Position numbers and translations under genes: made by a program. Positions 5,890-38,301 of a stretch of DNA of 64,000 nucleotides are shown in pieces. The DNA is taken from contig CAVTWK010000002.1 of the NCBI GenBank assembly GCA_963738485.1, forward strand, positions 63,183 through 127,182. Reading direction: 5' to 3'. How positions within the stretch are numbered: position 1 is the stretch's first letter; each line of letters opens with the position of its first letter. The notes below the pieces were generated by a model, which saw only the letters and a list, made by a program, of their open reading frames with translations, did no database searches and was not told the DNA's origin. The DNA comes from an uncultured Acidobacteriota bacterium (GTDB taxonomy: Bacteria; Acidobacteriota; Vicinamibacteria; Vicinamibacterales; SCN-69-37).

Positions 5890-6671
5890 ACGCTCAGCTC
5901 CTCCACGTCCTCGAACACGGGCACATCGGTCCGCAGGGTCGCCAACGTTCGGAACAGCTGCGCCGTTTCCATGTAATCGACCAGGGTGCGGGCGAGCCTG
6001 GCGCCATTGGTGACATTCAGGTGCCAGTCGCGGCTGCTCTCCGGGATGTGCTCGAGGTGGCCGAACCGCGCGAGCACGGTCGCCGACGACTTCGCGCCCC
6101 ACCCGGGTAGGCCCGGGTAGCCATCCGACGAGTCGCCGACCAGGGCCAGGTAGTCGGGAATCGACGTCGGGCGCACGCCGAACTTGGCGACCACGCCCTC
6201 CTCGTCGAGGGTGACGCGCGTTCGTCGATGCACCTGCACGACGCGCGTGCCGCGCACGCATTGCGCGAGGTCCTTGTCAGGCGTACAGATGTGGACGCGG
6301 TTGACTCGCGCGTCGCGGGCGGCGGCCTCGGCCGCCGCCGCGAGGGCATCGTCGGCCTCGAACTCGATCATCGGCCAGACCACGACGCCCAGTTCTCGCA
6401 GGCGTTCCTCGAGCAACGGAAACTGGGCCCACAGGTCGGCCGGGATGCCGTCGCCGGTCTTGTAGCCCTGCCACAGGCGATTGCGGAATGACTCGATGAC
6501 GTGGTCCGTCGCCACGCCGATGTGCGTGGCGCCGTCGGCCATCATGCCGCGCAGCGACTGCACGACGCCGCGCACCGCGGCGACCTCGCGGCCCTGCCCA
6601 TCAGCCGCCGAAGGCAGCGCGTAGTAGTGCCGAAACAGCTCGTAGGTGCCGTCGATCAGGTGGACGTCCAG
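5874..6671 (-). CDS. Stand-alone 5'-3' exonuclease / flap endonuclease (start uncertain; ORF open to 6734)
   Basis: VHLIDGTYELFR; FEADDALA; TPDKDLAQ; H3TH DYLALVGDSSDGYPGLPGWGAKS. Confidence 0.9.
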   Translation of the reverse strand: MDVHLIDGTYELFRHYYALPSAADGQGREVAAVRGVVQSLRGMMADGATHIGVATDHVIESFRNRLWQGYKTGDGIPADLWAQFPLLEERLRELGVVVWPMIEFEADDALAAAAEAAARDARVNRVHICTPDKDLAQCVRGTRVVQVHRRTRVTLDEEGVVAKFGVRPTSIPDYLALVGDSSDGYPGLPGWGAKSSATVLARFGHLEHIPESSRDWHLNVTNGARLARTLVDYMETAQLFRTLATLRTDVPVFEDVEELSVRPRR

Positions 6672-7465: not shown

Positions 7466-10400
7466 GTGACGGATCTGCCTGTCACCAAGGTCGGGCCCTA
7501 TCTCATCGACCACCAGCTCGGACGTGGCGGCATGGGCGTCGTCTACGCCGGCCGCCACGAGATCACCGGTGCGTGCGCGGCCGTCAAGACGGTCACGGAT
7601 GCCGACAGCCGCCGCATGTTCCAGATCCGGCGCGAGATCGACGCGCTCGCGCGCCTGACGCATCCGGGTGTCGTCCGCATCCTCGACCACGGCGCCGAGG
7701 GCGGCGTGCCGTGGTACGCGATGGACCTGCTCGATGGCCTCACCCTCGAAGGGGTCCATCGCGGGTTCCTCGAGCGGCCCCTCCGCGCGACGGACTCCGA
7801 CTGGGGCGGCGAGACGACCACGGTCGGGGTGCCGACGAATGTCCTGGGCCGGACGGACGGGCAGGATCAGGAGGCGGTCGCCGCGCACGTGCGGCGCTAC
7901 GAGGCCGCCGGGGGCCACCTCGCTGAAGCGATGGGGCTCGTCGTGCGCCTGTGCGAGACGCTCGCCTTCGTGCACGGCGAAGGCGTCATTCACCGCGACC
8001 TGAAGCCATCGAACATCTTCGTCACCGGTGACGGGCTGCCGGTGCTGGTGGACTTCGGCCTCGTGGCCAACGTCGGCGGCGTCACCGGACGGGACGTGCT
8101 CGACGAGACCTGGGTGGCCGGGTCATGCCTGTTCATGGCGCCCGAGCAGATCAACGGCGAGCTGCTCGATCCGCGGGCGGACCTCTATGCCCTCGGCTGC
8201 GTGATGTACCTGCTGATCACCGGCCGGCCGCCGTTCACCGGCACCAACAGCGAGGTGGTGGGACAGCACCTCCGCGCCACCGCCCCGGCGCCATCCACCA
8301 TCGTCAACGGCGTATCGCACGAGCTCGATCAGCTGGTGCGGCGCCTGATCGCGAAGCACCCACGCGACCGTGTCGGGCACGCGCATGACGTCGCGGCCGC
8401 GCTGCAGCGCCTGAAGATCACCGCGCCAGCCTGGGACGCGGAGTTGCCGCGCACGCGCACGTATCTCTACCGCCCTCCGCTCGTCGGCCGGCAGGCGGTG
8501 CTCGACCAGATCGACGCCTGCACACGCGGCCTGTCGGAGGGGCAGGGCGGCCTGGTCCTGCTCGGGGGCGAGAGCGGTGTCGGCAAGACCCGCGTCGCGC
8601 TCGAGATCGCTTCCCGGGTGGTCGCAAGAAACCAGGAAGTGACGACCAGCATCTGCGCGCCGACGCAGCCACCGCTCGCGCCGCTGCGCACGCTGCTCCA
8701 GCACATCGCGGACTACTGCGTGGCGCGTGGCGCCGTCGTCTCGGAGCGGGTCGTCGGCGACCGCGGCCCGCTGCTGGCGGCGTATGAACCCGCACTGGCC
8801 GGTGTGCCAGGTCAGGACGGGCGCGACGCACCGACGCCGCTGCCGCAGGCGGCCGCGCGCGATCGGCTCTTCCGCGCCCTCGTTGACACGCTCACGGCCT
8901 ACACCACGGCCATGCCGACGTTCCTCGTGGTGGACGACCTGCAGTGGGCCGACGAACTGACGGGCGCGTTCTTCGAACACCTGGCACGCGGGCCTCTCGC
9001 CGGCATGTCGCTCGTCATGCTCGGGACGTACCGCAGCGAGGAGCGGACGCCCGTGCTCGACCGTCTGCTTGCCGTCGAGGGAACCGTTGGGGTGACGCTC
9101 AACCGCCTGTCCACGGACTACGTCGGCGAGATGGTGGCCGGCATGCTCTCGCTGCCGACGCCCCCGCCGGCGTTCGTGCGCTTCCTGGCGGAGAAGACCG
9201 AAGGCAATCCGTTCTTCCTGGCCGAGTACCTCAGGACGGCGGTGTCCGAGCAGGTGCTCATCCGCACACGCGCAGGTCACTGGACGTTCGCCGAGAGTGA
9301 CGACCCCACCGACGTGATTCTGCGAGTCGCTGCCGCTGCCGCGATCGCTCCGCGACGTCATCGGCCGTCGGCTGGCGACCCTCTCGCCTCGGGCGCTCGG
9401 CGTCCTGCGGGCGGCCGCGGTCATCGGCCGCGAGTTCGACCCGCGCGTGCTCCAGCAGGTGTCCGGCGTCGAGGAGCACGAGCTGGCGAGCGCGCTCACC
9501 GAGCTGGTGGATCGTCACGTCATCGAGAACGCCGAGGCGGGGCGCTTCCGGATCTCGCACGACAAGCTGCGCGAGATCCCCTACGCGGAGCTCGACGAGT
9601 CGGACCGGCGAGCCCTGCACGGTCGTGCCGCCGCGGCGTTCGAAGCCTCGTCATCCGACGACCGGCACCACGGCCTGCTTGGGCAGCACTGGGTGCGCGC
9701 CGGCGAACCCGCGCGTGCGGTGCCCCACCTCGAGCGTGCCGGCGACCGCGCCCTGACGCTCTACGCACCGGCCGACGCGATTGGCTTCTACCGCGATGCG
9801 CTCGCGGCGCAGAAGGACAGCGGGGCGGCCGAACGCGAGACATTCGGCATCCGCGAGAAGCTGGCCGACGCGCTGGCCCTCACCGGTAGCCATGCCGACG
9901 CCCGGGACGTTTATCACGACGCGGTCGGGTCCGCTCCCGCACCCGTGGACGCCGCGCGACTCCATCGCAAGAGCGGCAAGACGCTGGAGACCGAGCACGA
10001 CCACGCGCAGGCCCTCGAGGCCTACGGCCGGGCCGAGCGGAGCCTGCTCGACGCCATCGACCGCGACGCCGCCTGGCATCGCGAGTGGGTCCAGGTCCAG
10101 CTCAATCGCATCTGGATCTTCTACTGGCAGAACCGCACCGCCGACATGAACCAGGTGGTCGATCGCGTCGCACCCGCGGTCACCGAGCACGGCTCGGCGC
10201 TGCAGCGGTCCAACTACTATCAGGCCCTCGTCACGCGCGATTTCCGTCAGCGTCGCTATGTCGTTCAGGACGACGTCCTGGCGAACGCGCGGCTGTCGCT
10301 GGCCGCCGCCGAAGAGGCGCGGGCGCCGGTCGAGACCGTCTTCTCGCGCTTCGTCCTCGGATTCGGTCTGCTGTTCGGCGGCCAACTGGACGAAGCCGAA

Positions 10401-10928
10401 GCGCAGCTGTTCGAGGCCCTGCAGGCCGCTCGACGGTTGGGCGACGTCACGAGCGGGCTCCGCTGTCAGGCCTACCTGGCGCTGACGCTGCGCCGGCAGC
10501 AGCGGGTGCCCGAGGCACAGGCCGCCGCCGATCAGACGCTGGCCACAGCCACGTCCCTCAAGATGAACGACTACGTCGGGCTCGCGCAGGCGGTGCTCGG
10601 CTGGTCGGCCTGGAAGGAGGGCGACGTCGCGGAGGCGCGGCGCCTGAGCCAGGCGGCGCTGGAGTCGTGGGGCCAGCTCAACTTCCCGTATCCGTTCCAG
10701 TGGACGGGCGCGTTGACGCTGCTGGCCCTGCAGATGACCAGCGTGCCGCTGCGCACGCTGGTCAGGTTGATCGAGCCGCTGCTCACGCCGGGGCAGCTTC
10801 GCTTGCCCGATTCTGTCAACGCGGCCCTCGAGCAGGCGGTCGGGGCCTACGGACGGCAGGACTCAGAGGCGACGCGCGAAGCCCTGCAGCGCGCCGTGGA
10901 CGAGTCCTTGCGCCTCGGCTTCCTGTAA
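7466..10928 (+). CDS. Ser/Thr kinase - AAA/STAND-type ATPase - TPR protein; one apparent +1 frameshift near 9318
   Basis: LGRGGMGVVY; HRDLKPSN; DFGL; MAPEQ; Walker A GESGVGKT; VVDDLQWAD; TEGNPFF. Removing one base at ATTC (~9317-9320) gives ...LPLPRSLRDVIGRRL...AAVIGREFD and joins ORF 9447..10928. Confidence 0.88.
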
Positions 10929-10970: not shown

Positions 10971-11861
10971 ATGACGCTGGTGATTGGTGCCACGGGATTC
11001 CTGGGACTCGAGATCGTCCGCCGACTGCGCGCGGAAGGGCGTCCGGTGCGGGCGCTGGTGCGGCCGACGACCGACGAGGCGAAGCGCACCTCGCTCGAGG
11101 CGATGGGGGCCGAGGTGGTCACCGGCGACCTCAAGGATCCGGCGAGCGTCGCGAAGGCCTGCGAGGGTGTCACCCACGTCATCTCCACGGCCTCATCCAC
11201 GATTTCGCGCGTCGAGGGCGACTCGATCGAGACCGTGGACCGCGACGGCCAGCTGACCGCGATCCGGGCCGCGAAAGCTGCGGGCGTCGGGCACTTCGTC
11301 CTGATCTCGTTCCCCCATTCAGACGTCGCGTTCCCGCTGCAGGATGCGAAGCGCGCCGCCGAGCGTGAACTCGCGGCCAGCGGCATGGCGTACACCGTGC
11401 TGCGCGTCCCGCACTTCTGGGAGATCTGGTGCAGTCCGGTGCTGGGCTTCGACGTCGCGCAGCGCAAGGTCCGGATCTTCGGTGACGGTGCCGGCGCCAT
11501 GAACTGGATCTCGCTCGGGGACGTGGCCGAGGTCGCCATCCGCGCGCTCGGGCACGACGCCGCGCAGAACCAGACGCTGACGTTCGGCGGGCCCGAGTCG
11601 CTCACCCAGCTCGACATCGTGGGGATCTTCGAGGACGCACTCGGTGTGACCTTCGAGCTCGAGCATGTGCCGGTCGAGGCGCTGCGCGAGCAGTATGCGG
11701 GGGCCACCGACCCTATCCACAAGTCGTTCGCCGCGCTGATGCTGATCGTCGCTGAAGGCGGCTGGGAGTTCGATCACGAGCCGATCCGGCGGACGTTCCA
11801 TGACGACTTCGCGTCGATCCGTCAGGTGGCCAGGGCCGCGGCGGCCGGTCAGGTCGAGTAG
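10971..11861 (+). CDS. Atypical SDR / NmrA-like NAD(P)-binding protein
   Basis: GAGGAG RBS; VIGATGFLG; VRALVR; KRAAE; FGGPESLT. Confidence 0.88.
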   Translation: MTLVIGATGFLGLEIVRRLRAEGRPVRALVRPTTDEAKRTSLEAMGAEVVTGDLKDPASVAKACEGVTHVISTASSTISRVEGDSIETVDRDGQLTAIRAAKAAGVGHFVLISFPHSDVAFPLQDAKRAAERELAASGMAYTVLRVPHFWEIWCSPVLGFDVAQRKVRIFGDGAGAMNWISLGDVAEVAIRALGHDAAQNQTLTFGGPESLTQLDIVGIFEDALGVTFELEHVPVEALREQYAGATDPIHKSFAALMLIVAEGGWEFDHEPIRRTFHDDFASIRQVARAAAAGQVE

Positions 11862-13172
11862 TAGGTACTCGCGCAGCAGCGCCTGGATGAAGGTGTCACG
11901 GTCGCGGTAGCCGCGATTGACGGCGTGCAGGTCGAGATTGGCCGGCACGCGTTCGCCGAGACGGTCCACGAAGAACCAGTGGAGCAGGGCGGGCAGGTCG
12001 ATCGGTGACTGCGCCACCGACGGATTGTCGAGCCCACGGTCGGTCAGGTGCCGGGCCTTGTCGCGCGCGCGCCGCGCCAGGTCGCCGTACGCGCCCGAGA
12101 CCCGCAGTTCGTCTACGAGACGACGGCCGACGTCGGGGTTGAAGACGGTCTTCGCCCACCGGACGCGGGCTTCGTCCTGCATCAGGCTGGCAAACGCCTC
12201 CCGGTCCAGTTCCTGCGCCTGCATCCACGCCGCGAGGCTTGGGCCGTCGAGCAGTTCATGTGTCCGCCGAAACTCGTCGATCGTCTGTCGAAACAGCGGC
12301 GGTTCGACGGTGACGTCGTGCCGGTCCGCCTCCTCGAGCGCCAGCGCGCGTGCGAACGCACCGTTGACCGCGGCCATGAACCGCCCGCGATCGAGGCGCA
12401 ATTCGTCGAGCAGCCAGTCCGACGGCAGGTCGTCTGGCAGGGCGGCCGCCACCTGCCGGCCGCTGCGCCGCGCCACCTGGTCCCAGACATCGGTGTGCTC
12501 GAAGTGGAAGCCGACGGACGCCGGCTCGTCCTCGCGTGCCATCCAGTCGCGCATCGACCGCAGCATCGCCACGGCGTCACGCCGCTTCTGGAAGGCGCGT
12601 CCCGCCGGCAGCCAGCCCGCCAGCGTCTCGCCGGCGCCGATCTCCCGCGCATGCGCGAGCAGGGCCGGCACACTGCGCTCGGCGTAGTGCAGCGACTTCA
12701 TGTGCGCGACGAGCCGCTGGTGGGCGTCGCCGGCAATCACGCCGGCAGCCTCAGCCGCGCGAAGCGTGGCGCGGATGTCCACCATGGCGACGGACTGCTG
12801 TCGGTACCCGCTCTCGGCGTCGCCGTGTGCCACCGTGACCTCGTCGTCATCTTCGAGGCGGCCGTCGCGGAAGGCCTCGAAGATCTCGCCGACGCCGACC
12901 ATGCCGAAGGAGCCGAGTTCGGCTGCCCGTAGTGCGCCCATGCTGGCGGCGCCGAAGACGTGGATCCCGCGCGACAGCGCCCACAGGATCTCCTTGTGCC
13001 AGACCGCGGGCACGCGCTCGAAGTACCCGTCGATCAGACCGATCGCCCACGGGTCGTCGAGCGAGGCCCGGTAGATGTCCCCCTGCGACGCGGGAGGCAG
13101 GCACACTGCGTCGAGTTCCTCCGTGATGTCTGTGTGCGCGATCGTCGGGCCGGCGAAGATGAAGACCTTCAT
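11849..13172 (-). CDS. tfuA: TfuA-like protein with ~220-aa helical C-terminal extension; apparent +1 frameshift in the last codons
   Basis: FAGPT; PPASQGD; IGLIDGYF; AVWHKEIL; GAASMGALRAAEL; EDDDEV; QKRRDA; ATGA overlap with ycaO; removing one C near 11864 gives ...LLREYYYST-stop at 11849. Confidence 0.9.
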
Positions 13173-14410
13173 GGCGTCAGCGTCCCGACGAGCGCACGCG
13201 CGCGACGCCCGGGCACGTAGCCTGGCGCGTCGTGCAGGGACTCGAGCCCAGGCACCACAACGCGGACGACCGGCACGCCGAACTCTGGCTTGGTCAAATC
13301 CACGGAGACCACCTCGTGGAGACCGACCCGGGCCAGGCACTGCCGCTCGTGGGCGACGTCGGCGGCGAAGTCCTCACTTTCGAACGTGGGGGCCTCGTGG
13401 AAATCGCCGCCGGCCGACGCGCCCGCTTCGACGTGCGCCCGGAGCCTGGCGACGCGATCCGGGTTGCGCGCCCGCTCGAAGAAGTCCCGATCCGCGTCGT
13501 CGCGCGCCCCCGCGATGTACGTCAGCCGGCACTGCACGGCCTCGGTGATCGCGCGGATCAGGGCGATCGCACGAACTGGATGGCAGCCGCTGCCGAACGC
13601 GAAGTAGAGCTGGCGCAGGTGATTTGGCGTCTGGTCCACGACCACGCAGCGAAAGGCGGCCAGGCCGACATCGGAGGTCGTGTTCCAGACGGCGACGCCT
13701 AGGCCGGCGCGGTCCAGCCGGTCGAGGAGGCTCCGGCTGTCCTCGTCGTCGATCGTGCGCAGGTCTACCCTCGTCTCGTGCAGTCCGGAGCCGCCGCGGA
13801 GACTCCACAACGCGTTGGCATCGCGCTCCACGACCTCGCAGATCGCGTGGCTCGTCGCTTCGAGCAGATGGTTGCCGGAGGCCAGGCCGTTCGAGCTCAT
13901 GACGAACGAGCCGCTGCCTGTGGGCAGCGGCAGGGAGAAGTTCGTGTGGACGACTTCGTACGGCAACCAGCGGCCCACGCCCGTGGCCAGGTCCTGGCCT
14001 TCGATCCAGAGCGTCTGTCGATCAGGATGAAAGGTGCTGACCGACAGCCGGGGCAGGGCCGTGACGTCCAAGACCGGGGAGGCCTGGCGGATTTCGTTCC
14101 AGCTGGCGAGCCGGAGCGGCGCCACCACGTGTTCGGCGTGAAACGCCTCGATGGCCTCCATGACGCCAGAGGCCTTCGCGGCGTCTAGGTCGAGTCCCTT
14201 GCCCTGGAACACCGCGAGCGATCGCGAGTTCGGGCGATAGACCGCCACGACCGGGATGCCGACGACGTCGAGCCCCGTGACGTTCGCGACGCGGGTGATG
14301 CCCGCGCGCGCCATCAGGGGCGCGACGGCGCGCAGCGTCTCACTCGGGCTGACGCGGCGGTGCGTGCCTCGTCGATGCGCCTTCGACGGGGAATCCCCGG
14401 CGAGGATCAC
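13169..14410 (-). CDS. ycaO: YcaO-family enzyme, TfuA-associated (thioamide-forming type)
   Basis: GITRVANVTGLD..GIPV; QGKG...MEAIE; SSNGLASGN; CEVVERDA; RAITEAVQCR; PVVRVVVPGLE; no PxPxP C-terminus. Confidence 0.93.
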   Translation of the reverse strand: MILAGDSPSKAHRRGTHRRVSPSETLRAVAPLMARAGITRVANVTGLDVVGIPVVAVYRPNSRSLAVFQGKGLDLDAAKASGVMEAIEAFHAEHVVAPLRLASWNEIRQASPVLDVTALPRLSVSTFHPDRQTLWIEGQDLATGVGRWLPYEVVHTNFSLPLPTGSGSFVMSSNGLASGNHLLEATSHAICEVVERDANALWSLRGGSGLHETRVDLRTIDDEDSRSLLDRLDRAGLGVAVWNTTSDVGLAAFRCVVVDQTPNHLRQLYFAFGSGCHPVRAIALIRAITEAVQCRLTYIAGARDDADRDFFERARNPDRVARLRAHVEAGASAGGDFHEAPTFESEDFAADVAHERQCLARVGLHEVVSVDLTKPEFGVPVVRVVVPGLESLHDAPGYVPGRRARALVGTLTP

Positions 14411-14706
14411 TTACGTGATTTTTTGGCTTTCCCGCCGCCCTTGGCGGCCGGCTTGGCCGAGGCCTGACTGAACGGGTCCACGTTGATGCTGGCCAGGTTC
14501 ACGAGGTAGCAGGCCGCGCCGATCTCCTCGAGTTCAGGGACGGCGGCGAGCACTGCGCCCTGATTGAGGACGTCGTCGAGCTGGGCAGCCATCTGTGCGC
14601 TGACCTTGCTGGCCTTGCGCCACTTGGCCTCGGGAATCTGGACGAGGACTTTCTTGTTCGTGGCCGGGTCGAACGTCGCGATGATGAGATCTCGTTTGAA
14701 GGGCAT
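14407..14706 (-). CDS. 99-aa protein, candidate YcaO/TfuA substrate or precursor
   Basis: GGAG upstream; GTGA overlap with ycaO start; core GAVLAAVPELEEIGAACYLVNLASI; Lys/Ala/Gly-rich tail. Confidence 0.75.
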   Translation of the reverse strand: MPFKRDLIIATFDPATNKKVLVQIPEAKWRKASKVSAQMAAQLDDVLNQGAVLAAVPELEEIGAACYLVNLASINVDPFSQASAKPAAKGGGKAKKSRK

Positions 14707-14790
14707 GGGAGCGTGCTCCTCGAAGCAATGTGTCTCGGATCGTTGCGACCCGATCGTCGGAGCCTAGCATGCGGACTGGTGACGGTCAAT

Positions 14791-14820
14791 CGATGAGCGA
14801 CAGATCGATGAGCGACAGAT
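14791..14820. promoter_or_regulatory. Perfect 15-bp tandem direct repeat upstream of the ycaO operon; possible operator
   Basis: CGATGAGCGACAGAT twice, ~85 bp upstream of ATG 14706. Confidence 0.4.
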
Positions 14821-15079: not shown

Positions 15080-15181
15080 AACCCCAGCCCTGCGTTCGCC
15101 TCCGTGGCTCCGCGGTGAGCGCCCGTGTCGCCTCTACGGCGGGGTGTGCCGTCGAAGCGAAATCGGGCTACTCTTACGCGC

Positions 15182-16182
15182 ATGCAGACACGTAGCGGCT
15201 GGCGTTTCCTCCTCGCCATCGGTGTTCTTGCTGTGGCTGTCCAGGCGTGCGGCGGATCGGCCCCGGCGAACAACGGACGACCGACCGAGCCGCGCATCGC
15301 CGTGATCCCGAAGGGGACGACGCACGAGTTCTGGAAGTCCATCCACGCGGGCGCGGTGAAGGCAAGTCGCGAACAGGGGGCCTACGTGATTTGGAAGGGC
15401 CCCGTCCGTGAGGACGACCGCGACGAGCAGATCAAGGTCATGGAAACGTTCATCAGCCAGAACGTGGACGGCATCGTCATCGCCCCGCTCGACAGCAAGG
15501 CACTGGTCCCGGTGCTCAACGATGCGCGGGCCCGCAAGATTCCGGTTGCAATCATCGATTCGGGCGTCGAGTGGGACGGCGCCGTGACGTTCATCGCGAC
15601 CGACAACGAGAAGGCCGGGGGCCTGGCCGCCGAGCGGCTCGGCAACGTCCTCGGCGGCCGGGGCCGCGTGATCGACGATGCGGCTCCAGGAGGGGTCGGC
15701 AAGTACCACGGCGCGCGAGACCGGCTTCCTCGCGACGCTGGCGGCGAAGTTCCCTCAGATCAAGGTCGTGTCGTCGAATCAGTACGGGGGCGCGACGACC
15801 GAGACCGGGTTTGCGATGGCCGAGCGCCTGCTCGCAACCCATCGTGACGTGGACGGCGTCTTCTGTCCCAACGAGACGACCACGTTTGGCATGCTGCTCG
15901 CGCTCGACGCGGCCGGCCGCGCCGGCAAGGTCAAGTTCGTCGGGTTCGACGCGAGTCCCAAGCTGGTCGAGGCGCTCGAGCAGGGGAAGATCGCATGGCC
16001 TCGTCCTGCAGAACCCGTTTCGCATGGGTGAGCTCGGCGTGACCATGCTCATGGCGGCGTTGAGGGGCGAGAAGGTCGAAGCGCGCGTGGATACGGGCGC
16101 GACGATGGTGACGCGCGACAACATGGGGCAGCCGGAGATCAAGGCGCTCATCCTCCCGGACCTCGCCAAGTACCTCAACTGA
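15182..16182 (+). CDS. Sugar ABC transporter substrate-binding lipoprotein (RbsB-like); two apparent +1 frameshifts (~15675, ~15994)
   Basis: Lipobox-like VQAC; IPKGTTHEFW; IATDN; then QEGSASTTARETGF, FVGFD; then GLVLQNPFRMG in successive frames. Confidence 0.88.
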
Positions 16183-35967: not shown

Positions 35968-38301
35968 ATGAGGCTGGACCCGGGCACACGACTCGGGCAC
36001 TACGACATCCTCAGTCTCCTCGGCAAGGGCGGGATGGGTGAGGTGTATCTTGCCCAGGACGTCCGCCTCGGCCGCCGGGTCGCTCTGAAGGTTCTGCCAG
36101 CTGCATGTGCTAACGACCAAGACAGCCTGGCCCGGTTCATCCGCGAAGCCAGGGCGGCCTCGGCGTTGAATCATCCGAACATCATCACGATTCACGACAT
36201 CGGCGATGCGGCGGGCACGCACTTCATCGCCTATGAGTTCGTGGACGGCAGGACGCTCCGCGACGTCGCACGAAGCGCTCCCCTCGACGCCGCGACGGCG
36301 ATCGACATAAGCATCCAGGTGGCGTCGGCGCTGGCCGACGCTCATCGGGCCGGCATCGTCCATCGCGACCTCAAGCCCGACAACGTGATGATCCGGGCGA
36401 CGGGGCTCGTCAAGTTGCTCGACTTCGGCATCGCCCGCCTGTCGCGGCCCCCCGAGACGGATGTCACGGTGACGGCGATGCCTGGCCAGACCCTCGGCGG
36501 CGTGCTGATCGGTACGCCGCAGTACATGTCGCCCGAGCAGGCACGCGGTTTGGAGGTCGATCATCAGACGGACCTCTTCAGCTTTGGCGCGCTCCTCTAC
36601 GAACTGCTGTCGGGGACGTCGCCGTTTGCTGCCGGTACCGCCACGGACGTCATCGTCGCAGTGCTGACGCGCGAACCGCCGCCGCTGACGGGGGTGCCGC
36701 CGGCCCTGGCCGATATCGTCAGCCGGGCGCTGCAGAAGGACCGCGTGCAGCGGTATGCGACGGCAGCGGAGCTGCTGCTCGACCTCACCCACGCGAAACA
36801 GACGCTCGGCGCCGGCCGAACGGCGCCGGCCGCGCGCCAACACGGCGACACGCCGCCGCAGCTCGCGACGGCCGGGTCAACGGCTACGCCGCGCGCCATG
36901 ACGTCGCTCGCTGTGCTGCCGTTCGCCAACATGAGCGCGGACGTTGACAACGAGCACTTCTGCGACGGCCTGGCTGAGGAGCTGCTGAATGCGCTGTCGA
37001 AGATTAACGCGCTGAGGGTGGCGGCGCGCACGTCCGCATTCTCGTTCAAGGGCAAGGCCGTCGACGTCGGCACTATCGCGAGGACGCTCGGCGTCACCGG
37101 CGTGCTTGACGGCAGCATTCGGCGCTCCGGTAATCGTCTTCGCATCTCCGTGCAGCTCGTCAACGCGGCCGATGGCTATCAGGTGTGGTCGGAACGCTAC
37201 GACCGCGAGATGCGCGACGTCTTCGAACTGCAGGACGAGATCACTCTGGCTGTCGTCGCCGCGCTGAGACTGAAGCTGTTCGGCGAAGAGCGTGCCGCGG
37301 TGCTGAGGCGCTACACCGACAACGCCGAGGCCTACGAACTGTTCCTGAAGGGCCGCCACCACGCCTACAAGTACACGGCGCAGGGCTGGCAACGCGCGGT
37401 CGAGTTCTTCGAGAAAGCGATCGCCCTCCAACCAGACTACGCGCTGGCCTATGCGGGCATCGCGGCGTCACGCGGCTGCCAGTGGTTTTTCGGCATCCTG
37501 CCGGCAGAGCGGGTGATCCCGCAGTGCAAGGCGGCCAGCGCGCAGGCGCTGGCCATCGACGACGGCCTTGCCGATGCATATCTCTCGCTGTCGATGATCA
37601 CGTTCTTCTACGACTGGGACTGGCGCGGCGCCGAGCGGGCGTTCATCCGCTCGATCGAGATCAACCCGAACAACAGCGAGGCCCTGTCGTACTACGCCTT
37701 GTTTCTCGTCTTCGATGGGCGCGTGGACGAGGCCATGGCGGTCAGCCGGAAGGCGCTGGCGCTCGACCCACTCGCGCCGCTCATCAACATGAACGTCGGC
37801 TGGACCTACTTCGCCGCCGGACGGCCAGCCGAAGCGTCGCAGCAGGCCGCGAAGATGGTCGAGAAGGATCCGGATTTCTACGGCGCCTACTGGCTGCAGG
37901 GCGCCATTCATCTGAGCGCGGGCGAGTACCAGGCGGCGGTCGGCCAGCTGCGGAGCGCCGTGTCGCTCGGCGGTCATCAAGTGGTGGTGGCCGACCTGGC
38001 GTCGGCCTGCAGCCTGGCTGGCGCCACCGGCGAGGCCACCGCGATCCTCGACCGGTTAGTGGACCTGCGGCGGCAGCACTACGTGCCAGCCATCTGCCTG
38101 GCGCGCGTCTTCAGCGCTCTCGGGAACACCAGGACAGCGATCGAGTGGCTCGAAGCCGCCTTCGCCGAACGCAACGGGGAGATGGTGTTCCTCGAACAAG
38201 AGATCGCCGGTGCTGCCGACGACGACCCAATGCGGCAACTGGCTGCCGAACCAAGAGTCAGAACGCTGCTCGACAGCATGCGCCTGCCGAAACCGGTGTG
38301 A
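35968..38301 (+). CDS. Ser/Thr kinase with TolB_N-like and TPR domains
   Basis: LGKGGMGEVY; HRDLKPDN; DFGIA; YMSPEQ; SLAVLPFANMS..DNEHFCDGLAEELL; TPRs. Confidence 0.93.
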   Translation: MRLDPGTRLGHYDILSLLGKGGMGEVYLAQDVRLGRRVALKVLPAACANDQDSLARFIREARAASALNHPNIITIHDIGDAAGTHFIAYEFVDGRTLRDVARSAPLDAATAIDISIQVASALADAHRAGIVHRDLKPDNVMIRATGLVKLLDFGIARLSRPPETDVTVTAMPGQTLGGVLIGTPQYMSPEQARGLEVDHQTDLFSFGALLYELLSGTSPFAAGTATDVIVAVLTREPPPLTGVPPALADIVSRALQKDRVQRYATAAELLLDLTHAKQTLGAGRTAPAARQHGDTPPQLATAGSTATPRAMTSLAVLPFANMSADVDNEHFCDGLAEELLNALSKINALRVAARTSAFSFKGKAVDVGTIARTLGVTGVLDGSIRRSGNRLRISVQLVNAADGYQVWSERYDREMRDVFELQDEITLAVVAALRLKLFGEERAAVLRRYTDNAEAYELFLKGRHHAYKYTAQGWQRAVEFFEKAIALQPDYALAYAGIAASRGCQWFFGILPAERVIPQCKAASAQALAIDDGLADAYLSLSMITFFYDWDWRGAERAFIRSIEINPNNSEALSYYALFLVFDGRVDEAMAVSRKALALDPLAPLINMNVGWTYFAAGRPAEASQQAAKMVEKDPDFYGAYWLQGAIHLSAGEYQAAVGQLRSAVSLGGHQVVVADLASACSLAGATGEATAILDRLVDLRRQHYVPAICLARVFSALGNTRTAIEWLEAAFAERNGEMVFLEQEIAGAADDDPMRQLAAEPRVRTLLDSMRLPKPV

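Follow-up and report, generated by a model that had tools for sequence, protein, structure and literature searches.

A 64,000-nucleotide stretch of DNA from an uncultured Acidobacteriota bacterium (assembly GCA_963738485.1, contig CAVTWK010000002.1, positions 63,183 to 127,182; hereafter the window) contains a small open reading frame (ORF) for a 99-residue protein, followed on the same strand by genes for a YcaO and a TfuA protein. The three genes are translationally coupled. The stop codon of the small ORF overlaps the GTG start codon of ycaO (GTGA, 14410-14407), and the stop codon of ycaO overlaps the ATG of tfuA (ATGA, 13172-13169). This arrangement, three genes on one strand with 4-nt overlaps, had been proposed in a preliminary description of the DNA, and both the ORFs and the overlaps were verified in the sequence. 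Judged by their sequences, the two enzymes are of the thioamide-forming kind. We consider the 99-residue protein to be their genetically coupled thioamidation substrate, with a probability slightly above one half (about 0.55). The module probably makes a sulfur-modified peptide or small protein that has not been described before. Backbone thioamides are rare, and the module offers a compact, testable case: a single small substrate candidate in which a six-residue motif is invariant, a single YcaO, and a single TfuA to which a domain not described before is fused.

A small-protein family linked to ycaO-tfuA

The surroundings of the small gene were compared across ten loci. One of them, L002, came from the species-representative genomes and is labelled as an Acidobacteriota metagenome-assembled genome; the pattern scan of genome contigs that yielded it reaches close relatives only. 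The other nine, L004-L012, are metagenome contigs. The preliminary description had proposed that homologues of the small ORF be sought upstream of ycaO-tfuA, and this is where they were found. According to tblastn searches with the window proteins, a YcaO gene (58-83% identical) directly follows the small gene in nine of the ten loci, and in the tenth, L008, an N-terminal YcaO fragment of about 21 residues was recognized by eye in the same position. TfuA follows YcaO in all five loci that reach past YcaO (L002, L007, L009, L011, and L012). The small proteins of L007, L009, L010, and L012 are only 33-40% identical to that of the window, indicating that the coupling survives wide divergence. Overall, the association of the small gene with ycaO-tfuA is kept in relatives with identities as low as about 30%. 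In L008, the stretch past the YcaO-like codons (726-1122) is unrelated coding sequence, which may reflect a chimeric assembly or a rearrangement.

The small ORF is present as a single copy in its own genome. Of 30 candidates from a word-seeded search, 24 were homologues at E ≤ 0.01, each an unnamed metagenome protein of 82-113 residues. An exhaustive hidden Markov model (HMM) search of 1.84 billion representatives gave 25 small-protein matches at E ≤ 0.001, including single-domain proteins of 74-106 residues with about 30-50% identity to the small protein. P0041, a protein of 1291 residues with low-complexity repeats among the HMM matches, was dismissed as spurious. No NCBIfam family matched the small protein (P0001) at E ≤ 1, a sub-threshold Pfam match to NAPRTase_C (E = 0.0065) was dismissed as chance, and the ESM Atlas contained no usable match. 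The small protein is thus the product of a real gene and belongs to a new, rare family without a Pfam or NCBIfam model. The family is also sparse in the genomes sampled: it was absent from a sample of 400 other genomes of the window genome's phylum, from 60 relatives of the L002 genome, and from a sample of 300 genomes of the L002 phylum.

Conservation in the family is concentrated in a short segment in the second half of the protein. In an alignment of 41 single-domain members (A6), residues M1, G50, G63, C66, Y67, and L68 are invariant and I9, A54, P57, and L71 nearly so, while positions 64-65 vary. The G-x-x-C-Y-L core of the motif that the preliminary description had picked out from a single sequence is therefore kept throughout. 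The mean top-residue frequency is highest for residues 63-76 (Table 1) and reaches 0.75 for residues 50-58 and 0.68 for residues 1-13; the sequence FKRDLIIA in the N-terminal half is conserved as well. The Lys/Ala/Pro-rich tail behaves differently. It varies across the alignment and is absent from many members, so that the "histone-like tail" originally listed as a feature is a trait of close relatives only. Members of a sister clade have a short, acidic tail and carry an additional, variable extension at the N-terminus. The C-termini of the 41 proteins are variable and none ends in Gly-Gly, and no GG-type or other conserved cleavage motif was found in the alignment.

Some relatives contain the unit in tandem, with two copies in P0040, P0042, P0050, and P0051 and four in P0035 and P0039. 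In the two-copy proteins, the C-terminal copy bears the cysteine, within C-Y-L or C-F-L in three of the four and within C-Y-V in P0042, and in the first copy the Cys motif is either lost (P0040, P0042, P0050) or altered (P0051). By analogy, placement of the Cys motif in the C-terminal copy resembles the situation in multi-core precursors. The four-copy proteins alternate between two repeat types, M-C-F-L-V-N-L (R-C-F-L-V-N-L in one copy of P0039) and M-G-C-L-V-N-L.

An AlphaFold2 model built from the 41 sequences had a mean predicted local distance difference test (pLDDT) score of 62.7, compared with 49.7 in an earlier run with 25 close sequences. The model predicts a beta-hairpin (strands 7-13 and 18-24) and helices at residues 26-30 and 37-48; in the invariant motif (61-71), as in the tail, pLDDT stays below 50. 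A Foldseek search of the PDB with this model returned nothing at E ≤ 0.001, and the best Z score in a wide VIA-align search (2.8) was not usable. The preliminary description had viewed the product as a small folded protein unlike a leader-core precursor. The first half of this view holds for residues 1-50 (pLDDT 70-83) but not for the motif and tail, so the product is not clearly a small folded protein. As to the second half, the pLDDT pattern looks more like a structured leader with a flexible core. In the model, then, the small protein looks like a structured N-terminal half followed by a flexible invariant segment.

Table 1. Features of the module, in window coordinates except for the radical-SAM gene, which is given in the coordinates of the respective loci
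Feature	Position	Strand	Remarks
Small ORF, 99 aa (P0001), candidate substrate	14407..14706	-	Founder of a family without Pfam or NCBIfam model
Codons for residues 1-50	14557..14706	-	AlphaFold2 block pLDDT 74, 83, 82, 79, 70; proposed leader-like recognition half
Codons for residues 63-76 (GAACYLVNLASINV)	14479..14520	-	Best conserved segment, mean top-residue frequency 0.83; proposed modification site
Codons for residues 77-99, Lys/Ala/Pro-rich tail	14407..14478	-	Mean top-residue frequency 0.22, 43% gaps
GGAG, motif resembling a ribosome-binding site	14716..14719	-	9 nt before the ATG of the small ORF, read from the sequence
YcaO, 413 aa (P0002), GTG start	13169..14410	-	Pfam PF02624
TfuA domain, residues 1-210 of P0003	12543..13172	-	Pfam PF07812
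C-terminal domain of ~235 aa fused to TfuA	11849..12542	-	End at 11849 requires a 1-nt frame correction
CC with one apparently surplus C	11864..11865	-	Assembly indel or real frameshift; uncorrected ORF runs to 11319
NmrA-like NAD(P)-binding oxidoreductase, 296 aa	10971..11861	+	Convergent with TfuA; PF05368 5.8e-26, PF13460 7.5e-26
Ser/Thr kinase-AAA-TPR protein	7466..10928	+	Pfam Pkinase, AAA_16, TPR_12; upstream of and co-directional with the NmrA-like gene; frame change near 9303-9319
Radical-SAM gene	L007 4334-5848; L012 565-2100; L008 2-349; L010 2-322		Between NmrA-like and small gene in L007 and L012

The enzymes and their neighbours

YcaO matches PF02624 over the entire profile (E = 4.1e-79, positions 1-325 of 325). 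Residues S81, E85, E88, E184, E192, E195, R196, R286, and E290, which we take to be involved in ATP binding, are invariant in the seven module YcaOs. A PxPxP C-terminus marks azoline-forming YcaOs. The window protein ends in ...HDAPGYVPGRRARALVGTLTP and lacks a PxPxP run, in agreement with the earlier remark that it has no proline-rich C-terminus. Thioamide-forming YcaO pairs are also not known to have an E1-like or ocin-ThiF cyclodehydratase partner next to YcaO, and no such ThiF-type domain was found among the neighbouring ORFs scanned with Pfam.

The YcaO was placed by its scores against NCBIfam models. The best model was TIGR03266 for McrA-glycine thioamidation (216.3 bits, below the cut-off of 365), ahead of TIGR03604 for the cyclodehydratases of thiazole/oxazole-modified microcins (TOMM; 129.8 bits, cut-off 219) and NF040716 for the uS12/uL16-type YcaO of E. 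coli (28.4 bits, cut-off 700). The best PDB match was MJ1094 (6pe3, E = 1.4e-28). For TfuA, the domain matched PF07812 (E = 1e-46), and the score against NF033432, the TfuA-related model for McrA-glycine thioamidation, was 183.2 bits, below the cut-off of 235.2 and over residues 2-208 only. A TfuA homologue, P0028, matched PDB entry 6xp8 (E = 1.1e-37). As all curated equivalog cut-offs were missed, the enzymes are not members of the McrA, TOMM, or E. coli-type families. Clustering of the YcaO with a family of known substrate would have spoken against a new system, and no such NCBIfam family was reached at its cut-off. The genome contains a single TfuA and four ThiS-family loci elsewhere.

The C-terminal domain of about 235 residues that is fused to TfuA is conserved in L002 (50% identity) and L009 (38%). 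A search with this extension alone returned 12 proteins. Ten of them, of 443-475 residues, all contain PF07812, and the other two (273 and 295 residues) have no Pfam entry and look like fragments. Pfam has no model for the domain, no PDB entry matches its sequence, and its match to TIGR04500 ("putative peptide maturation system protein", PpiC-related; 1e-6) was far below the cut-off. The ESM Atlas gave only leads below 0.9 for this part, to TfuA-family clusters of about 450 residues, mostly from Pseudomonadota, suggesting that the long form of TfuA may be more widespread than these 12 proteins indicate.

Next to the operon, an NmrA-like oxidoreductase with a GATGFLG sequence near its N-terminus and a kinase-AAA-TPR protein are encoded on the opposite strand. 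The same convergent layout of both genes is found in L002. In L007 the two genes are co-directional and lie upstream of the small gene. In L012 the NmrA-like gene is also upstream of the small gene, and the contig starts inside it and gives no view of the kinase position. The module-linked NmrA-like proteins (window, L002, L007, and L012) are 57-59% identical to each other, compared with 44-52% for the closest homologues among 60 genomes related to that of the window. In three relatives whose NmrA-like genes were fetched, no YcaO, TfuA, kinase, or small gene was present within 1.5 kb. A tree of NmrA-like proteins groups the four from the module in a single clade (support 100/99), separate from the homologues in genomes of the same family. 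On these sequence comparisons, the NmrA-like oxidoreductase is a module-specific, co-inherited orthologue. Among the kinase-AAA-TPR proteins, identity is 42-46% between window and L007 and 44% between L007 and L002. A second kinase-like stretch in the window (36319-36765) is 40% identical over 153 residues to the kinase-AAA-TPR protein of L007.

In the sister clade (L007, L008, L010, and L012), the position immediately upstream of the small gene is taken by a gene for a 511-residue B12-binding radical S-adenosylmethionine (SAM) protein with a CxxxCxxC motif; L008 and L010, both short contigs, start within this gene. The best NCBIfam match of this protein, "RiPP maturation radical SAM C-methyltransferase" (3e-28; RiPP, ribosomally synthesized peptide with post-translational modifications), was below the cut-off. 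No close copy of the gene was found in the window genome. The operon had initially been described as having no adjacent tailoring enzyme. With a conserved NmrA-like enzyme next door and a RiPP-type radical-SAM protein in the sister clade, tailoring is now likely.

Candidate substrate and competing explanations

If the 99-residue protein is the substrate, the module would work like known YcaO-TfuA thioamidation. The N-terminal ~55 residues, with the beta-hairpin and helices, would serve as a structured, leader-like recognition unit, and the flexible, invariant G63-x-x-C66-Y67-L68 segment would enter the YcaO active site. YcaO would then activate one backbone amide in the motif with ATP, and the TfuA domain would deliver sulfide from the thiocarboxylate of a ThiS-type protein whose gene lies elsewhere in the genome, leaving a backbone thioamide. 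The C-terminal domain of TfuA may help to hold or dock the substrate. The NmrA-like oxidoreductase, joined in the sister clade by the B12 radical-SAM methyltransferase, would act on or with the product, and the kinase-AAA-TPR protein would regulate the set, in a conserved module that appears to have no cleavage or export function of its own. According to the accessible text of Rice et al. (2026, PMC13063428), YcaOs that form thioamides in habitats not rich in sulfide tend to rely on a ThiS-type carrier and a TfuA hydrolase.

Several points weigh against this assignment. The thioamide is read solely from the enzyme families, and both enzymes score below the NCBIfam equivalog cut-offs (216 versus 365 and 183 versus 235 bits), so that their function could differ. 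In typical RiPPs the leader is conserved and the core variable, whereas here conservation is highest in the putative core. The invariant cysteine would suit thiazoline formation by a YcaO equally well. The linkage counts do not include the most distant single-domain and the tandem-repeat homologues (P0032-P0052) and therefore do not establish universal linkage, and the fetched loci may share ancestry, in which case the counts are not independent.

The best of the competing explanations, although we give it only limited credence, is that the module belongs to an ordinary exported RiPP. A long-leader precursor would be thioamidated, tailored, and then cut and exported by a distal protease and transporter, with the NmrA-like protein as a tailoring enzyme and the kinase as a regulator. 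The precursor-first architecture, the RiPP-type radical-SAM enzyme of the sister clade, the flexibility of motif and tail in the AlphaFold2 model, and the existence of multi-copy relatives all fit this explanation. So does the report of 613 TfuA-related cluster families with 797 predicted precursor families, some from Acidobacteria, in the accessible part of Malit et al. (2021, PMC8120280). The gene content is harder to reconcile with it. The ORFs scanned around the window operon and in L002 include neither a peptidase nor a peptide exporter, the gene set common to the window, L002, L007, and L012 has none either, and the ABC system upstream of the operon is a sugar-type importer. The original remark that no peptidase, exporter, or ThiS/ThiF is adjacent thus remains valid for the neighbouring ORFs scanned with Pfam. 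In addition, the putative core is invariant rather than diversified, a conserved cleavage motif is missing, and the invariant segment is followed by a variable tail or by almost none.

A role of the small protein as an accessory is still less probable. It would act as a sulfur carrier, scaffold, or chaperone through its invariant cysteine, and YcaO-TfuA would modify the NmrA-like enzyme or an unlinked protein. The cysteine is indeed invariant, the N-terminal half is partly structured, and the NmrA-like gene is strictly co-inherited. The known protein substrates of YcaO thioamidation in the accessible text of PMC13063428, methyl-coenzyme M reductase (MCR) and uL16, are also not small dedicated precursors. 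On the other side, no ThiS/MoaD or other carrier family matches the small protein at E ≤ 1, Gly-Gly is missing from its variable C-terminal end, and four ThiS-family genes are available elsewhere in the genome. Tandem repeats of the unit also fit a substrate better than a carrier.

The least probable of the explanations considered is that YcaO acts as a cyclodehydratase, with Cys66 attacking the carbonyl of residue 65 to form a thiazoline (-18 Da) that the NmrA-like protein may reduce, and with TfuA and its extra domain mainly binding the substrate; tfuA is adjacent and overlapping, the YcaO is nearer to the archaeal thioamide type than to the TOMM type (216 versus 130 bits), no E1-like or ocin-ThiF partner is found among the scanned neighbours, and the PxPxP C-terminus commonly associated with azoline formation is missing. 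Invariance of Cys66 beside the variable positions 64-65, the conserved NAD(P)-dependent oxidoreductase next door, and the fact that azoline and thioamide YcaO chemistry differ only in the nucleophile (as stated in the accessible text of PMC5589413) are in its favour.

Among the closest known systems is thioglycine formation in MCR of methanogenic archaea. The nearest NCBIfam models (TIGR03266 and NF033432) and structures (MJ1094, 6pe3; TfuA, 6xp8) are of this type, and a stop/start overlap of ycaO and tfuA, as in the window, is mentioned for this system in the accessible part of PMC5589413. In contrast to the archaeal system, the window scores miss both equivalog cut-offs, the hosts are bacterial, and the module has an additional gene for a protein of about 100 residues in front, the domain of about 235 residues in TfuA, and linked NmrA-like and kinase-AAA-TPR genes. 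The E. coli YcaO, according to the same part of Rice et al. (2026, PMC13063428), modifies folded uL16, the second protein substrate after MCR, through recognition of tertiary structure. Unlike the window module, that system, as described there, works without TfuA, and coupling of ycaO to the gene for the substrate is missing.

Thioamidated RiPP clusters, such as those for thioviridamide and the thiovarsolins and the TfuA-related families of Malit et al. (2021), likewise have a precursor-like gene beside YcaO-TfuA and tailoring genes that vary between clades (PMC8120280, accessible part). They differ from the window module, in which the putative core is invariant, the N-terminal half is long and partly structured, and the conserved set has no protease or exporter; in addition, no precursor family of Pfam or NCBIfam is matched by the small protein at E ≤ 1, the sub-threshold NAPRTase_C match aside. 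Precursors of the proteusin/NHLP and Nif11-like types have a similar length of about 100 residues and a folded or partly folded leader that engages the enzymes (PMC10858898 and bioRxiv 10.64898/2026.10.04.756588, as far as accessible). However, neither P0001 (E ≤ 1) nor the L007 fragment 5950-6228, in which the first 13 residues are missing (E ≤ 0.1), matched their models, and the window family has neither a GG cleavage motif nor a variable core.

Systems for pyrroloquinoline quinone (PQQ) and mycofactocin also have a small precursor with an invariant short motif beside maturation enzymes and NAD(P)-type oxidoreductases rather than exporters. Their maturation enzymes are of other classes than those found here, and they still use a peptidase. 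One could go further and suppose that a small intracellular protein or peptide is matured here, not an exported antibiotic. The G-x-x-C-Y-L motif would become a thioamide (or thioamide plus Cys) functional group, possibly a redox or metal-binding prosthetic unit that works with the NmrA-like NAD(P) oxidoreductase under the control of the kinase-AAA-TPR protein, and the TfuA extension would be a new substrate-docking domain. This elaboration is speculative, and we regard it as unlikely in this full form.

New in comparison with the described systems are the precursor family, the invariant putative core, the fused TfuA domain, the co-inherited NmrA-like and kinase-AAA-TPR genes, and a conserved set without processing or export genes. 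A literature search found no description of the small-protein family, the TfuA C-terminal domain, or the NmrA link; the supplementary lists of Malit et al. (2021), which were outside the comparison, may include this family. MCR and uL16 are given as the only known protein substrates of YcaO thioamidation in the accessible text of Rice et al. (2026, PMC13063428), all others being RiPP antibiotics. For a product that remains intracellular, thioamidation would no longer be confined to antibiotics and a pair of housekeeping enzymes but would include a small-protein system dedicated to it. Should the intracellular role be true, the small protein would join MCR and uL16 as a third kind of protein modified by a YcaO, and it would be the first of them to be encoded by a dedicated, coupled gene. 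For an exported product, the module would define a precursor family that is new and has a structured leader. In both cases, the family of small proteins and the C-terminal domain of TfuA, neither of which has a Pfam or NCBIfam model, could serve for genome mining, and the co-inherited oxidoreductase hints at chemistry after the thioamide.

Reading frame of tfuA and occurrence in metagenomes

The preliminary description had placed the end of TfuA at 11849. In the uncorrected frame (translation table 11), however, the first stop is further downstream (Table 1), and the resulting protein of 617 residues is antisense to the NmrA-like gene in its extension. Deletion of one C of the CC at 11865-11864 gives a TfuA that ends in ...REYYYST, with the stop codon at 11851-11849. 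The closest full-length homologue, P0061, ends in ...REYYYTT, and most other homologues stop a few residues past REYYY. The single metagenome contig that covers 11864 (run X3, from a relative with about 95% identity) has one base fewer at this place. Since several genes in the window are broken and the source genome is 62% complete in 9 contigs, the extra C is likely an assembly indel, the alternative being a real frameshift. The C-terminus of another TfuA homologue, P0062 (444 residues, from a public genome record), looks out of frame, pointing to a comparable frameshift in another assembly, close to the gene's 3' end.

The kinase-AAA-TPR gene is also split over two frames, with the L007 homologue aligning separately to 7949-9319 and 9303-10928 in tblastn searches. 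This break looks like an indel of the kind seen in tfuA. A gene for a periplasmic sugar-binding protein (15125-16182) is distributed over at least 2-3 frames (ORFs 15125-15847, 15678-16031, and 15571-16182), and its Peripla_BP_4 match is limited to the first part. These findings suggest that the assembly is indel-prone.

A scan for promoters and terminators gave 0 sites, no more than in shuffled sequences, and the only Rfam match, to a microRNA family at 14261-14329, was sub-threshold and was rejected. Contigs at least 99% identical to parts of the operon (11700-14800) were found in four runs (X1-X4) from four studies, with none of the contigs covering the whole stretch. Two of these runs carry the label bioreactor metagenome, and one the label freshwater sediment metagenome.

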